DNA from: Escherichia coli O127:H6 str. E2348/69
GTDB lineage: Bacteria > Pseudomonadota > Gammaproteobacteria > Enterobacterales > Enterobacteriaceae
DNA length: 64,000 nucleotides
Direction: 5' to 3' (one strand)
NCBI RefSeq assembly: GCF_000026545.1
Contig: NC_011601.1
Numbering within the stretch: position 1 is the stretch's first letter; each line of letters begins with the position of its first letter. This document shows, piece after piece, positions 49,575 to 55,753 of the stretch. The translations under genes were made by a program, and so were the position numbers. The notes under the pieces are model-generated. The model saw only the letters and a program-made list of their open reading frames with translations, did not search any database and was not told the origin of the DNA.

Positions 49575-50123
49575 ATGAAGTTAGAAGATTTCGCAGCTTA
49601 TAACCGCCCTCAATCGAAGGTGTCCGATGAGAGGAAATTTCTTGATTACATTCACAGTCGGAACAGATGGGTTGAGTTTATCAAAAGCATCGATAACGCA
49701 AAGCCAGTATCAATTGCCATGAAAAATTCATTCCATAGTCAATGGGTTGAGTCTGGGGCCTTTATACGTGAAAAGATCAACGACGACTCAATTCTCCTCA
49801 AACTATTAACGCTCTTATTGCCAACATATGATGGTGACAGCCTTGTACTTTATCGGGGGGAAAATAAAGACAGGTTCGATAAAGGGCTCATTGGATTTTG
49901 CTGGACAACGGACATTTCAGTCGCCGAGAAGTTTGGTCGTGGATTGAATGCATACAAATCACCAGGTTTGCTGTTAAGAGCTGAAGCTCCAGCCTGTTCT
50001 ATATTAGCTGGCCCCAATGCCCACAGTCGTTATCTTGGTGAAAATGAGTTCACGGTTAACCCCTCGCGTCTTTCAAACATAACCGTTATTGAAACCTATC
50101 CGGACAACTCTTTTTTCAAATGA
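49575..50123 (+). CDS. Opposite-strand moron protein (182 aa), unknown function
   Basis: Strong RBS TGAGGA 7 nt before ATG 49575; AT-rich; transcribed against the late operon between terS and the lysis genes; ordered motifs YRG ... WTTD ... ENEF. Confidence 0.6.
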   Translation: MKLEDFAAYNRPQSKVSDERKFLDYIHSRNRWVEFIKSIDNAKPVSIAMKNSFHSQWVESGAFIREKINDDSILLKLLTLLLPTYDGDSLVLYRGENKDRFDKGLIGFCWTTDISVAEKFGRGLNAYKSPGLLLRAEAPACSILAGPNAHSRYLGENEFTVNPSRLSNITVIETYPDNSFFK

Positions 50124-50255
50124 TGAATAAATAGATGCCCTATACTTCACCCGCCACTGGTACGCCGTTTCGATGGCCTCCCAGTCCGGTTTTGCCATGA
50201 ATTTTTCCTCTTAGTGACATTATCGAAGCCCCTTATCAAAGGAGCTTCTGTAATG

Positions 50256-50441
50256 TCAGTCCCGAACGAACGTAACCTTCGTGTTTGTCGCTCGCCGTAC
50301 AAGGCGCGCCGCTTCGCGTTGCATTTCATCGATAACTTTTGGCGTCATCGGCTGATGCGCATATTTACGTTCAATCTCTGCAAAAATCCCGTTCATCGTT
50401 TCGCTGTCTGGTGGGATAACTTTAACGTTTAATCGTGCCAT
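50256..50441 (-). CDS. Small hypothetical protein
   Basis: ORF 50256..50468; internal Met MARLNVKV... preferred; weak evidence only. Confidence 0.3.
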   Translation of the reverse strand: MARLNVKVIPPDSETMNGIFAEIERKYAHQPMTPKVIDEMQREAARLVRRATNTKVTFVRD

Positions 50442-50697
50442 TGGTTTGTGCTGCCCTGTTTTTCTCAAAAGCCCTAATATCAGCCTTATCCCTGTTGCAC
50501 TGTGCTAACGCTGACAACAACGCAACATTCAGGTTAAGGCTAGCTCCCCACGTAAACGGGTCGGGTAAATCTGGCTGGGGTGTTTCATCCGTCAGACTGG
50601 CTGGTAACGGAACGACCGGCACCGACACGTATACCGTTCGCGTATTCGTGCAACCGCTTAACTGCGCCAGAAGGAACGATACGAACAGCGCAATCAT
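50422..50697 (-). CDS. Rz1: o-spanin (Rz1-like outer membrane lipoprotein), overlapping Rz
   Basis: Starts in the +1 frame inside Rz; signal peptide with lipobox LSGC; proline-rich mature part. Confidence 0.65.
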   Translation of the reverse strand: MIALFVSFLLAQLSGCTNTRTVYVSVPVVPLPASLTDETPQPDLPDPFTWGASLNLNVALLSALAQCNRDKADIRAFEKNRAAQTNGTIKR

Positions 50698-50977
50698 CAC
50701 CCGAAACAGCCACTTTGATATCTTCCTGGGTTCTCTGTGACTCCAGTGCGATCTGCTGTTTTGCATGCTGGTTAGCCTCTATAACTGTATTGATGATTTG
50801 CAGAGATTGCAGGACGTTACTGGTAATGGCTGTTGCAGATTCAGCATTTCGTACAGCCTCATCAGCACGCTCCTTTTCGTGCTGATATTTGCTGTAGTAA
50901 TGCCCGGCAGACCAGATAAAAGAACCGATGACGGTAACAAAGAAGGCAACAATAACCAGCTTATATCTCAGCTTCAT
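50585..50977 (-). CDS. Rz: i-spanin (Rz-like)
   Basis: 130 aa; N-terminal TM helix then coiled coil; follows the endolysin gene. Confidence 0.7.
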   Translation of the reverse strand: MKLRYKLVIVAFFVTVIGSFIWSAGHYYSKYQHEKERADEAVRNAESATAITSNVLQSLQIINTVIEANQHAKQQIALESQRTQEDIKVAVSGDDCAVRIVPSGAVKRLHEYANGIRVGAGRSVTSQSDG

Positions 50978-51437
50978 TTACCACCCCACCCGCTTCTTTA
51001 AATCGGGCAATCAGGTCACCGATTCTATGTTCATACTGACCGTAACCAGCCCCCGGCAACGAAGCCCAGATATTGCTGCAACGGTCGATTGCCTGACGAA
51101 TATCGCCGCGGTCAATCATCGGTAAAGCGCCACGCTCTTTAATCTGCTGCAGCGCTACAGCATCCTGGCTTTCTGGAGAAAAATCTTTCAGGCCAAGTTG
51201 CTTGCGGTAGGCATCCCACCAGCGTGAAAGAAGCTGGTAGCGACCGGCTGCTGTTGATTTGAGTTTGAGGTTTAGCGTGACAAGTTTGCGAGGGTGATCA
51301 GAGTAATCAGTGAATAGCTCTCCGCCTACAATGACGTCATAACCATGATTTCTGGTTTTCTGCCGTCCGTTATCAGTTCCCTCCGACCACGCCAGCATAT
51401 CGAGGAACGCCTTACGTTGATTATTGATTTCCACCAT
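50961..51437 (-). CDS. R: Endolysin, lambda R-type lytic transglycosylase
   Basis: 158 aa; [24 protein letters not shown]... matches phage lambda R as remembered. Confidence 0.9.
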
Positions 51438-51744
51438 CTTCTACTCCGGCTTTTTTAGCAGCGAAGCGTTTGATAAGCGAACCAATCGAGTCAGTACCGA
51501 TGTAGCCGATGAACACGCTCGTTATATAAGCGAGATTGCTACTTAGTCCGGCGAAGTCGAGAAGGTCACGAATGAACCAGGCGATAATGGCGCACATCGT
51601 TGCGTCGATTACTGTTTTTGTAAACGCACCGCCATTATATCTGCCGCGAAGGTACGCCATTGCAAACGCAAGGATTGCCCCGATGCCTTGTTCCTTTGCC
51701 GCGAGAATGGCGGCTAACAGGTCATGTTTTTCTGGCATCTTCAT
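51421..51744 (-). CDS. S: Holin, lambda S-type
   Basis: 107 aa; [34 protein letters not shown]... matches lambda S107 as remembered, including the dual-start MKM motif. Confidence 0.9.
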
Positions 51745-51986
51745 GTCTTACCCCCAATAAGGGGATTTGCTCTATTTAATTAGGAATAAGGTCGATTACT
51801 GATAGAACAAATCCAGGCTACTGTGTTTAGTAATCAGATTTGTTCGTGACCGATATGCCCGGGCAAAACGGCAGGAGGTTGTTAGCGCAGCCTCTTGCCA
51901 CCCGCTTTCACGAAGGTCATGTATAGAAGGCCGCAGCGTAACTATCACTGATGAGTTCAGGATAGCCAGTGGCTACGGCTCAGTTA

Positions 51987-52062
51987 TGGTGCTGGTTAAC
52001 GGACTTGAACCGCTACCCATTCGCTTACAAGGCGACCGCTCTACCATTGGAGCTAAACCAGC
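51987..52062 (-). tRNA. Phage-encoded tRNA-Thr (anticodon UGU)
   Basis: 76-nt cloverleaf on the minus strand: perfect 7-bp acceptor stem GCTGGTT/AACCAGC, D-loop with GG, anticodon loop CTTGTAA, T-loop TTCAAGT, discriminator A, encoded CCA. Confidence 0.8.
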
Positions 52063-52067
52063 ATGTT

Positions 52068-52142
52068 TGGCGGGACAGCGTGGACTCGAACCACGATAAG
52101 AAGGTTAACAGCCTTCCGTAATGACCTTTATACGACTGACCC
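52068..52142 (-). tRNA. Phage-encoded tRNA, probably Asn (anticodon GUU)
   Basis: 75 nt: GGGTCAG...anticodon stem GAAGG/CCTTC, loop CTGTTAA...GGTTCGAGTCC T-arm...CCA; one acceptor and one D-stem mismatch and a 4-nt variable loop. Confidence 0.6.
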
Positions 52143-52196
52143 AAATAAAAAAAGCCACCGTTGCAACTTAAGAGTCACTAACGGCAGCTTACATCT

Positions 52197-52709
52197 TTAA
52201 ACGGTATGATATTTAATTCTGGCGGCCTCAAAAGCCGCAGCGGCAAGTTCGGCAGTGTCATGGTATCCAAGGTTAATACACTTTCCAGACGCATTAATTC
52301 TTGCTCTCCATTTCCCGTACTTAGCATCCCAAGACACGCCACGGTATCCAGATTTATTATTCTTCTGAATTTTCCTGTTCTGCATATTTTCGGAATGAGT
52401 GACAAGACGAAGATTTGATATCCGGTTATCTGTTCTTACCCTGTTGATGTGATCAATAAAACCATCGGGCATGGTGCCATAAACAATCAACCATGCCAGT
52501 CTGTGAGCAGGGTATGCTTTACCATTAATCATAATCATTAAATACCCATCAGAATTTATTGATGAGCATTTCTTGAAAGCAAAACGAGAGTTCCATGTCA
52601 AAGTGGTCCTCTCTCTCCCCTGCCTCCATCTCCAGTGAAAGTCGCCTGATGATGGATTGTAATCAACAACAGAAAGCACCATTTCTGGCGTTAATTTTAT
52701 TTCTTTCAT
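52197..52709 (-). CDS. HNH homing endonuclease with AP2-like DNA-binding domain
   Basis: 170 aa; HRLAWLIVYG...HINRVRTDNRISNLRLVTHSEN HNH motif, C-terminal YRGVSWD...W AP2-like motif. Confidence 0.75.
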   Translation of the reverse strand: MKEIKLTPEMVLSVVDYNPSSGDFHWRWRQGRERTTLTWNSRFAFKKCSSINSDGYLMIMINGKAYPAHRLAWLIVYGTMPDGFIDHINRVRTDNRISNLRLVTHSENMQNRKIQKNNKSGYRGVSWDAKYGKWRARINASGKCINLGYHDTAELAAAAFEAARIKYHTV

Positions 52710-52830
52710 CGCTTTACCTTAGGGATAGAGCCTGTTCGCGTAGATATGACAGCCAAGAGCGGAGCGATGTTTCCACCACCATATCTCAGGCCCATATCAC
52801 TAAGACTCTTGTTTTGATTGCACGCGAATG

Positions 52831-52854
52831 CAAAAAAGCCCACAGGAGGTGGGC
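52831..52854 (-). terminator. Rho-independent terminator downstream of Q (tR'-like)
   Basis: Minus strand gcccac-ctcct-gtgggc followed by T6; located about 50-70 nt downstream of the Q gene where the lambdoid PR'/qut/tR' unit is expected. Confidence 0.6.
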
Positions 52855-52903
52855 TTGTGATGGTTGCTGAATGCAAAAGCAGCAGCATATGTGAATATTA
52901 TGG

Positions 52904-53422
52904 CTAAATGGCTAATTGCATGTCAAGGCTTTTAACAGCAATATGCTTAACTTTCTCAACACGTTTACGCATTTTGAAAGCATTTTTCATTGGTTGGTAC
53001 AAAACAAATAATGACGCTTTCAGGATGTCGTCAATTTCGTTTCTACAGGTTGCCAGTGAAGGTTTTCTCCATCCCTCGCCACCACGTCCACACATCTTGC
53101 GTGGCTTTGCAGTCGCGTGATAGTAGGATGCAATTGCTCGCTTAGATGAACCATGAGCGTAGTAGCTGAGGAGGATGCCAAAGGCTTTCTTGTCAATGTA
53201 CATGACGGAATCGACGACCTGAGAAATCAACATTCCATCATCATCATTGCACATTGGCCTTGTCATAACTCTTCCCGGCTCTACGCTCTCCATGAACTTC
53301 GCTATTACGCTGCTCATGCGCTTTTCCAGACGACCTGAATAAACCCATGCGCCCCACAGTTCAAGCCAGCCATTCAGCCACTCATGCTGTTCTTTGGTGA
53401 GGTTTAGTTCTCTTATGCTCAT
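52904..53422 (-). CDS. Late gene antiterminator Q (QuuD-like family)
   Basis: 172 aa; LELWGAWVYS and CNDDDGMLISQ...LLSYYAHG segments resemble DLP12 QuuD-type antiterminators; last gene of the nin region before tR'. Confidence 0.65.
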   Translation of the reverse strand: MSIRELNLTKEQHEWLNGWLELWGAWVYSGRLEKRMSSVIAKFMESVEPGRVMTRPMCNDDDGMLISQVVDSVMYIDKKAFGILLSYYAHGSSKRAIASYYHATAKPRKMCGRGGEGWRKPSLATCRNEIDDILKASLFVLYQPMKNAFKMRKRVEKVKHIAVKSLDMQLAI

Positions 53423-53607
53423 CGTCTTCCTCTCTTGCCCTGTTTGACCATCAGGACGCCGTTAACTATTACGTGACGCTCGCCTTTGCTGTCTCGGTTG
53501 TACTTGAGCACTGTTCCTCTTGCGCAGGAAAGCATCCTCGCCACTTCGGTCTGATTGCCTCGTGTCTGGATAAGAAGCTCTGGTATCGTTTGAATTGTGG
53601 CGTTCAT
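53419..53607 (-). CDS. ninH: NinH-like protein
   Basis: 62 aa; ...GNQTEVARMLSCARGTVLKY... resembles lambda NinH. Confidence 0.7.
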   Translation of the reverse strand: MNATIQTIPELLIQTRGNQTEVARMLSCARGTVLKYNRDSKGERHVIVNGVLMVKQGKRGRR

Positions 53608-53966
53608 GCGTTCTCCAGTTCGGTGATTTTTATTCCAAGCCTTCCGCCTGGTACTTTCACGCCACGAATTACGCGAATGTCATCGAATTGCTCGTCGTCT
53701 TCCGCAAATCCGGCGTGGATAAGGGAGTCGAGTAAACCCTTCAGGATGTTATCGAGGTCGCGGCGGCGGGAGTCTGGAACGTCTGCGATGACTTTGATGC
53801 GGAGTCGTGATTTGGTGAAAATGTCTAACTTGAGTTGGCGGATGATTTGCTGAACGTCTTTTCGGTATTTCTGGCCTTTATCGCTGATGTAGTATTGGCT
53901 TCCCCGTCTTCGCCAGTAGGTGTTCACCGACGGCGGGTATGGAAGCACAAACTGATATTCGTTCAT
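53604..53966 (-). CDS. rusA: Holliday junction resolvase RusA
   Basis: 120 aa; PDSRRRDLDN catalytic motif typical of RusA. Confidence 0.8.
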   Translation of the reverse strand: MNEYQFVLPYPPSVNTYWRRRGSQYYISDKGQKYRKDVQQIIRQLKLDIFTKSRLRIKVIADVPDSRRRDLDNILKGLLDSLIHAGFAEDDEQFDDIRVIRGVKVPGGRLGIKITELENA

Positions 53967-54253
53967 GACTTAATCTTCCCCTCCTTCAGCAGTATCGCCT
54001 GCGTCCTGATCACGCCTTCGAGGTGGTAAAGTCTGGCGTCTTTGTTGTCGAGAATCCGGGTGCGTCGGTCGATCTCCGCGTGGCAGTCACTACAAGCCCA
54101 TGCGCCGATCAGGTCGTCAGGCTTCATTCCCGTTCCGCAAATTCCAGCCATCCGGTAATGTGCCAGAACTGTAGTTTCAGGATTACCATTGCATATTCCG
54201 TAAATACGTACCTGGCATTCTCTGCCGCGTGCTTCTTTGCGTAGGTTAGCCAT
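53963..54253 (-). CDS. YbcO-like Cys-rich protein (DUF1364)
   Basis: 96 aa; RGRECQVRIYGICNGNPETTVLAH...CSDCHAEIDRRT resembles DLP12 YbcO. Confidence 0.65.
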   Translation of the reverse strand: MANLRKEARGRECQVRIYGICNGNPETTVLAHYRMAGICGTGMKPDDLIGAWACSDCHAEIDRRTRILDNKDARLYHLEGVIRTQAILLKEGKIKS

Positions 54254-54522
54254 TATGGTTCACTCCAGTAATTCTCAATTGCAGCAGCCATTCTCTGCAT
54301 CCACTCAGCCAGCTTTAACGCGGCTTCTCTTTCAGAACCACATTTAGGGAAATCCTTCATTTCCATGCTGGCCTTATATGTTCTGAATGCCAGGTCTCCG
54401 GTAATAACCAACTCCTGATCAAGCACCGAGCGTTTATTCCGGTGTTGAACGTAATAGACAGATTCAGTCCGCATTTCTTCTCTGTCTTTTTTGAAGGAAA
54501 TAAGCTCAGAGAAATCACTCAT
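54253..54522 (-). CDS. Nin-region hypothetical protein
   Basis: 89 aa ORF translationally coupled in the nin operon. Confidence 0.4.
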   Translation of the reverse strand: MSDFSELISFKKDREEMRTESVYYVQHRNKRSVLDQELVITGDLAFRTYKASMEMKDFPKCGSEREAALKLAEWMQRMAAAIENYWSEP

Positions 54523-54690
54523 CGTCTTCTTCCTCGTACATTGAGCTATTCGGATCGCTCATCAGTTCTGCGCAGCAGTACTCACACACGTGAACTTCCA
54601 GCACATGCAGCTTCTGACCGCAGTTAGCGCACGTTAAAGCTCGCTCGACGCTTTCTTTCTGGTATTGAAGGGATTGGGATGGGCTAAGCA

Positions 54691-55056
54691 TTATTGGATT
54701 CTCTGCATCATGAGAAAGACAATCATGGCGGCGCGGAGGGGATTTTCATGTATAGCTCGCTTAGATTTACAGTAGGCCACACCGCGTGCACCCCACTCGT
54801 CTTCATCGAGATTGATAATGCTAATCCTGTATTTTTCAATAATCGGCCATGCGGCTGCTGGGTTTGCGCATGGGTTAAAGGATCCGCGCTCAACTTCTAC
54901 TTCAACTGCGTCTCCGTTTACAATGTCTCCCTCAAATGAGACAAACACCATATCGCCATTCTCACCTTCTTTGTAATCCGGTGATCCGTTATGAATGGCT
55001 TCGAATACCGCCACGTTAATTTCAAAATCACTTAACTGTGAATAATCCATTGTCAT
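54691..55056 (-). CDS. Nin-region hypothetical protein
   Basis: Start at MTMDYS with ATGA overlap to ninE stop; acidic protein. Confidence 0.45.
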
Positions 55057-55229
55057 TTCCTCGCACGATTTCTTAGCCACCGGATATCCCACAGGTGAGC
55101 CGTGTAGTTGAAGGTTTTTACGTCAGATTCTTTCGGGATTGGCTTGCGTTTATTTCTGGAGCGTTTCGTTGGAAGGTATTTGCAGTTTTCGCAGATTATG
55201 TCGGTGATACTTCGTCGCTGTCGTCTCAT
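55053..55229 (-). CDS. ninE: NinE-like protein
   Basis: [30 protein letters not shown]... resembles lambda NinE; internal start of ORF 55053..55319. Confidence 0.65.
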
Positions 55230-55753
55230 TCTGCCATCCTGACGCCCTGCCCGATCGCCATCAATGCCGCTTTGGATACGGTAGTAAACATCCGTCGAGG
55301 ACTGATGAACGGTCGCCAAATCAGCAGCATGGAGCCTTTGCTGTTTCCCTTCTTCTCCAGCCCTGTCGATGGTTCGATAAAATTAATCCGTCCATCAGTG
55401 ATAATACGAACTTCGTCGACACTCTCCAGAGCCTTGCTGAACCATCCGACTGACATATCCTCTGGCACAAGCATAACTACCGTCTGTCGCTGTTGTATGC
55501 ACTGCTCAGCGGCTTTTTCCACCCACGGCCTGATATTGCTATACGGTGGGTTATTCCAGATTGCACCGTGGCTTATCCACTCAGAATTTAGCGCGTCGTC
55601 GGCCTCAGTTAGCCAGTGAGCACACAGAGCATTTTTGTCGCTCGCTGCCGAATCCAGCCAGAATCCAAACTCAATATCCAGTGCATCAAAAAGCCAAAGC
55701 GGCGTTTGCCAGCAGTCCTTGTCGTGTGCTGGCGTATTTGATTTGATAGTCAT
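55226..55753 (-). CDS. Phage DNA N6-adenine methyltransferase (Dam-like)
   Basis: NPPY motif (IWNNPPYSN); start at MTIKSN with ATGA overlap to ninB stop. Confidence 0.7.

Follow-up and report, generated by a model that had tools for sequence, protein, structure and literature searches.

We examined a putative phage DNA adenine methyltransferase gene in a window of 64,000 nucleotides (nt) of Escherichia coli O127:H6 strain E2348/69 (contig NC_011601.1). Positions 50000-62000 of the window are 100% identical to the chromosome of this enteropathogenic E. coli (EPEC). The coding sequence specifies a phage N6-adenine DNA methyltransferase of 175 amino acids (aa) and occupies 55226..55753 on the minus strand, including the stop codon. 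Its open reading frame (ORF) runs from an ATG at 55753 to a TGA at 55226 with an uninterrupted translation that ends in GQGVRMAE, and a GGAG lies 10 nt 5' of the start codon. The ORF list started the frame at an upstream GTG at 55813, and the stretch added in this way falls within ninB. The codons for N68-P69-P70-Y71, which form catalytic motif IV of amino-methyltransferases, were read from the sequence at 55541..55552 on the same strand.

The gene is flanked by two members of the nin region. On its 5' side, ninB (55750..56193, minus strand), encoding an orf-family recombination mediator, overlaps it in an ATGA at 55750-55753, where the TGA stop of ninB overlaps the methyltransferase ATG. On its 3' side, ninE (55053..55229, minus strand) begins in a second ATGA, at 55226-55229, which combines the methyltransferase TGA with the ninE ATG. 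RefSeq places WP_012578958.1, phage N-6-adenine-methyltransferase, at exactly the coordinates of the methyltransferase gene, with "recombination protein NinB" and "NinE family protein" as its neighbours, and Pfam matched the flanking ORFs to NinB (E = 2e-54) and NinE (E = 3.8e-43). The first-pass annotation had placed the gene between ninB and ninE and had proposed translational coupling with them. The position was borne out by the Pfam matches of the neighbours and by RefSeq, and the coupling held up, with overlapping stop and start codons at both gene ends.

The sole Pfam match of the protein was to PF05869, "DNA N-6-adenine-methyltransferase (Dam)" (E = 8.1e-65; 218 bits, gathering cut-off 28.1 bits), and spanned profile positions 1-167 of 169. 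The NCBIfam equivalog TIGR01712, phage_N6A_met, was matched over profile positions 1-165 of 165 (E = 3.3e-79; 264 bits, cut-off 97 bits). The PHROG assignment was PHROG 111, "DNA methyltransferase", and the top PADLOC model was "orphan methyltransferase". The adjoining genes are ninB and ninE, ninX and ninF; no cognate restriction endonuclease lies alongside. The family scores are far beyond chance, and the gene is a real and intact copy. Matches in Pfam, NCBIfam, RefSeq and PADLOC thus agree with the first-pass view of the product as an orphan phage N6-adenine methyltransferase with an NPPY motif.

Residue conservation was assessed in an alignment of 58 diverse full-length family members with 33-79% identity to the query. 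T17, D34, N68, P70, R122 and F125 were invariant, and W15, P18, F31, A37, N41, W59, P69, Y71, L95, W104, N137 and S141 were nearly invariant; the window protein has every one of these residues. Motif IV, (N/D)PP(Y/F/W) in the family, is intact as NPPY, with N68 and P70 invariant and P69 and Y71 conserved in at least 95% of the members. The family-invariant WxTP block, D34 of the DxAA block, R122, F125 and N137 are all in place, and these residues probably have roles in binding S-adenosylmethionine (SAM) or DNA.

An AlphaFold2 model built on the 58-sequence alignment was a single-domain alpha/beta structure with a mean predicted local distance difference test score (pLDDT) of 95.1 and a predicted template modelling score (pTM) of 0.91. 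As modelled, the protein would adopt the class I SAM-dependent methyltransferase fold in one domain, without a separate target-recognition domain, and NPPY follows the strand at residues 64-67. The predicted fold confirms a fit to the amino-methyltransferases; by itself it would not separate a DNA from an RNA substrate. When the PDB was searched by sequence, with the protein or the family profile as the query, the only matches were chance ones: SdiA, and Med31 through a "CNPPYS" string. Dam was not matched even when the profile was used, and these searches found no solved structure for the PF05869-type family.

Natural fusions of the domain were also seen. Four proteins of 500-690 aa (P0139, P0140, P0148 and P0242) combine an N-terminal PF00145 C5-cytosine DNA methylase with a C-terminal PF05869 part that is about 50% identical to the window protein; judged by their domains, they would be double-specificity phage methyltransferases. 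In a different set of records (P0001, P0121 and others), the methyltransferase is joined to NinE, Phage_rep_O, RusA, NinB or Q domains and is 94-100% identical to the query in the shared part. These appear to be artefacts, either assembly chimeras or gene calls that ran on through ATGA overlaps, and not real fusions.

The window protein is identical at 172 of 174 aa to orf32 of VT2-Sakai (NP_050531.1). The two proteins share the length of 175 aa, membership of PF05869 and the ninB/ninE slot with overlapping stop and start codons, and they differ by two conservative substitutions, I60V and M173R. VT2-Sakai is a Shiga toxin 2 (Stx2) phage, whereas the window gene is carried by a non-Stx lambdoid prophage of EPEC E2348/69. 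The gene named 'dam' in Phi24B is the same gene as orf32, which is also carried by HK544, HK140, Sf101 and many Stx phages. Besides orf32, no methyltransferase is annotated in VT2-Sakai; because no other methyltransferase-family gene was found in this phage, the enzyme known as M.EcoVT2Dam is orf32. We considered other VT2-Sakai genes for this enzyme and rejected them; the unannotated 299-aa orf4 is a DUF551 protein.

Radlinska and Bujnicki (2001, Acta Microbiol Pol) reportedly cloned the VT2 "dam methyltransferase", named M.EcoVT2Dam in REBASE, as told by the papers that cite their work. In a list by Radlinska's group, VT-2 and HP1 also appear as phages with genes for Dam-like proteins. A methylome study of Shiga toxin-producing E. 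coli (STEC) O111 states that M.EcoVT2Dam targets 5'-GATC-3', citing Radlinska and Bujnicki 2001, and its REBASE-based tables give 99%-identical M.EcoVT2Dam homologues as GATC enzymes (PMC6602927). By analogy with this literature on a 99%-identical protein, the reported GATC specificity would extend to the window enzyme. STEC 95NR1 has two copies of M.EcoVT2Dam, and the only motifs found in it were GATC, CTGCAG and CRARCAG; the latter two were ascribed to other enzymes and, according to the authors, Dam and its homologues were not distinguishable (PMC6602927). A search for an additional methylated motif, suggested at first pass as a check on the gene, is unsound in a dam+ host, and so is the refutation tied to its absence: an active GATC enzyme adds no new motif there, because host Dam has the same target. 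A literature search found no methylome paper for E2348/69.

Two other orphan phage enzymes, both reported as GATC methyltransferases, belong to the same family. Dam of phage T1 (ST20, 237 aa; PF05869, 1.7e-70) is 33% identical to the window protein, and Dam of Haemophilus phage HP1 (orf13, 173 aa) is 38% identical. Both have its conserved blocks WxTP, DxAA, NPPYS, GRxxF and NxKGS, and both lie in early or replication-associated operons. T1 Dam differs in a 45-aa N-terminal extension and an internal insertion. The contexts differ as well: T1 is a virulent siphovirus and HP1 a P2-like phage, and neither carries its gene in a nin region.

Unlike these enzymes, host Dam and T4 Dam, which are of the alpha class (MethyltransfD12), had no detectable sequence homology to the window protein, and structural alignment to them covered only 105-110 residues at 8-11% identity. 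In host Dam, an inserted target-recognition domain separates motif I from motif IV, whereas the model of the window protein has no extra domain. With neither MethyltransfD12 homology nor this insertion, the window protein falls outside the host-type Dam group. The first-pass term "Dam-like" is apt for the reported GATC target and for that alone; as a statement of homology it fails, with PF05869 as the only Pfam match and 11% identity in the structural match to E. coli Dam. The GATC specificity common to host Dam and the window enzyme, if real, is convergent. PCIF1/CAPAM, the cap-specific adenosine N6-methyltransferase, showed 14-16% identity to the window protein. It is a eukaryotic protein of about 480 residues that carries a helical RNA-binding domain and has capped mRNA as its substrate, and no functional equivalence is implied.

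A further enzyme, M.EcoGV or M.EcoPA8orf6770P (gp5), resembles the window protein in being prophage-encoded and annotated as a GATC adenine methyltransferase, and some Stx prophages carry it along with the nin-region gene. It is an MT-A70 protein with a DPPW motif, encoded at the left end of Stx phages, which needs the partner PNB-2 and prefers 16S rRNA (PMC10810198). The gp5-type gene is absent from VT2-Sakai. The window protein has NPPY, no MT-A70 Pfam match and a nin-region site between ninB and ninE, which place it outside MT-A70. We therefore rejected the idea that the window gene is the "DNA adenine methyltransferase" of Stx phages that was recently found to methylate 16S rRNA; that is gp5, a different gene of a different family. 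A place for the non-specific enzymes Hia5 and Hin1523 in the PF05869-type family was also rejected, as they carry DPPY and FxGxG and belong with the alpha-class Dam relatives (PMC3299994). M.EcoGIX, a plasmid-borne enzyme specific for single-stranded DNA, was likewise set apart from the window methyltransferase. The "Dam-like" methyltransferases of E. coli prophages come from three or more families with no relation to one another (PF05869/NPPY, MT-A70/DPPW and alpha-class Dam relatives), which should not be conflated because one of them was recently reassigned to rRNA methylation.

The position of the gene between the replication genes and Q, past a tR2-type terminator and with ATGA overlaps at both ends, places it in the nin region. 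The gene order is O-like, DnaB-like helicase, terminator, ninB, methyltransferase, ninE, ninX and ninF, continuing to ninH and Q. The remaining nin operon 3' of ninE comprises ninX, ninF, a phrog_1258 ORF, a ybcO-like gene, rusA, ninH and the antiterminator gene Q (52904..55053, minus strand). In lambda, the slot between ninB and ninE is occupied by ninC and ninD, and the methyltransferase is therefore one alternative cassette of the mosaic nin region.

A consensus scan and folding located a putative tR2-like intrinsic terminator at 56215..56238 (minus strand), between the DnaB-like helicase gene and ninB. The hairpin is AGGCCTGC-loop-GCAGGCCT and is followed by the T-run TTTTTATTT; by its sequence, passage through this terminator should require antitermination. 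A consensus match, TTGACT-17-GATAAT, marks a candidate pR-like promoter at 59542..59570 (minus strand), facing a divergent LexA/S24-type, cI-like repressor gene. The cro-like and cII-like genes, the O-like replication gene and the DnaB-like helicase gene lie 3' of this promoter, which is presumed to be the source of nin-region transcription. Immediately 5' of the methyltransferase there was no convincing dedicated promoter, only weak 9/12 matches that were fewer than in shuffled sequence, and promoter-like sites across the region were no commoner than in shuffled sequence. A strong pR'-like promoter and a terminator follow Q at 52926-52836. By the known layout of lambdoid phages, we infer that the gene would be repressed in the lysogen and expressed after induction as a delayed-early, antitermination-dependent gene.

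With a threshold of 95% nucleotide identity, 244 phage records carried the 528-bp gene; they include many converting phages for Stx1 and Stx2 as well as lambda-like isolates, HK544, HK140 and Sf101. Among 5426 complete E. coli genomes, 1565 (about 29%) had it at the same threshold, with up to five copies each. The E2348/69 genome has two copies; the second is outside the window and presumably sits in another lambdoid prophage. There was no second PF05869-type gene within the window, which was not scanned for MT-A70. At the protein level, relatives occurred in 1901 phage records, and an exhaustive search of a library clustered at 50% gave 8743 representative clusters at E ≤ 0.001. The gene is already known, being annotated in RefSeq and common, with a near-identical orthologue reportedly cloned in 2001. 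The locus is of little weight as a discovery, and the questions of recognition and role belong to the whole family and not to this locus.

The prophage part of the window (26500-64000) contains 115 GATC sites, with an observed/expected ratio of 0.56 by a Markov estimate, and the ratio in the flanking chromosome (window 1-26400) was 0.80. GATC is thus moderately depleted in the prophage, and the phage lineage is therefore not free of selection against the site. Within the O-like replication gene, about ten copies of the 12-bp unit TCATGTGCGGCT at 58031-58157 look like origin iterons. Three GATC sites within 80 bp (58204, 58240 and 58284) adjoin these repeats, and a 2-kb stretch with zero GATC, 56163-58203, lies ahead of the three clustered sites. 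The iteron-like repeats and the GATC cluster could be a Dam/SeqA-sensitive origin region.

We consider it highly probable that the gene encodes an active, minimal GATC N6-adenine methyltransferase that is expressed as a delayed-early function and tops up the methylation of replicating phage DNA. The product would be a single-domain SAM-dependent DNA N6-adenine methyltransferase, the orthologue of M.EcoVT2Dam, with the same GATC target as host Dam. Upon loss of the repressor, and with antitermination, transcription would proceed from pR through the tR2-like terminator, and translation of the enzyme would be coupled to that of its close neighbours in the compact ninB-dam-ninE series. Phage DNA may replicate faster than the limited host Dam can follow, and the phage enzyme would raise the GATC-methylating capacity for the 115 prophage sites. 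Progeny genomes would then leave fully methylated and protected from restriction enzymes that cut unmethylated GATC. Full methylation may also shield progeny DNA from host proteins whose targets are hemi- or unmethylated GATC sites.

Several points weigh against a dedicated GATC enzyme in this role. The claim of GATC specificity is second-hand, reaching us through citing papers. The type of assay behind it, in which a dam- host over-expressing the enzyme is scored for MboI resistance and DpnI sensitivity, does not tell strict from relaxed GATC specificity. Over-expressed Dam-like enzymes may also methylate off-target (PMC10810198). The family has no solved structure to account for recognition of GATC by a 175-aa enzyme that lacks a target-recognition domain, and the depletion of GATC in the prophage (0.56) fits imperfectly with a phage that reliably protects these sites. 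As an alternative, the enzyme might have a looser or another specificity, modifying further sites besides GATC or being nearly non-specific, and would then give broad anti-restriction protection like the Hia5- or M.EcoGII-type phage enzymes. Such an activity seems unlikely: the known non-specific enzymes, which have DPPY and FxGxG, are alpha-class Dam relatives and thus of another family, and the literature assigns GATC to a 99%-identical enzyme, with which the REBASE-based tables agree (PMC6602927). STEC 95NR1, with its two copies, had no unexplained N6-methyladenine motif, which is a weak point given that the gene is probably repressed in lysogens. Quite improbable, too, is an unusual mode of site recognition, in which the enzyme would work as a dimer or, jointly with the coupled, single-strand-binding NinB, on single-stranded DNA or replication or recombination intermediates; its in vivo substrate or specificity may in that case differ from that of host Dam. 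RNA as the main substrate has a precedent in the Stx-phage MT-A70-type gp5, a 16S rRNA methyltransferase, and is very improbable here, as experimental reports, the nearly equal scores of DNA enzymes and the natural PF00145 fusions point to DNA.

A role during lysogeny must also be weighed against the GATC methyltransferase acting in replication. The identical protein of Phi24B was detected with antisera against lysogen cultures (CMAT clones CM2 and CM14), and induction significantly alters the level of its transcript; the authors of that study proposed that the enzyme could supplement host Dam in keeping lysogeny, and their paper cites evidence that host Dam is needed for stable 933W lysogeny (PMC3342100). 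However, detection in lysogen cultures is compatible with expression in a spontaneously induced fraction of the cells, from which it can stem. Both pR and the tR2-like terminator lie 5' of the gene, for which no convincing separate promoter was seen, and host Dam, which methylates about 99.9% of GATC sites (PMC6602927), leaves a second GATC enzyme almost nothing to change. An epigenetic regulator of host or prophage genes at the lysogen stage is accordingly very unlikely. The alteration of host gene expression in lysogens that was suggested at first pass is similarly unlikely for a gene in a repressor-controlled pR operon with a target that host Dam has almost completely methylated.

Other features of the prophage were noted downstream of the nin region. 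An ORF with HNH_3 and AP2 domains, resembling a homing endonuclease, lies at 52197-52709 (minus strand), 3' of the pR'-like promoter and terminator and 5' of two tRNA genes, and would be the first gene of the late transcript. The phage-borne tRNA-Thr(tgt) and tRNA-Asn(gtt) are at 51987-52142 (minus strand), between the Q/pR' region and the lysis genes; in Stx phages, tRNAs and the toxin genes occupy the position of this pair. Towards the other side of the window, a tRNA-Arg(cct) is directly followed by a tyrosine integrase gene with an arm-binding domain, beside tail-fibre genes (26442-27835, plus strand). The prophage probably has one of its ends here, in an argW-type site, and the other end is beyond the window.
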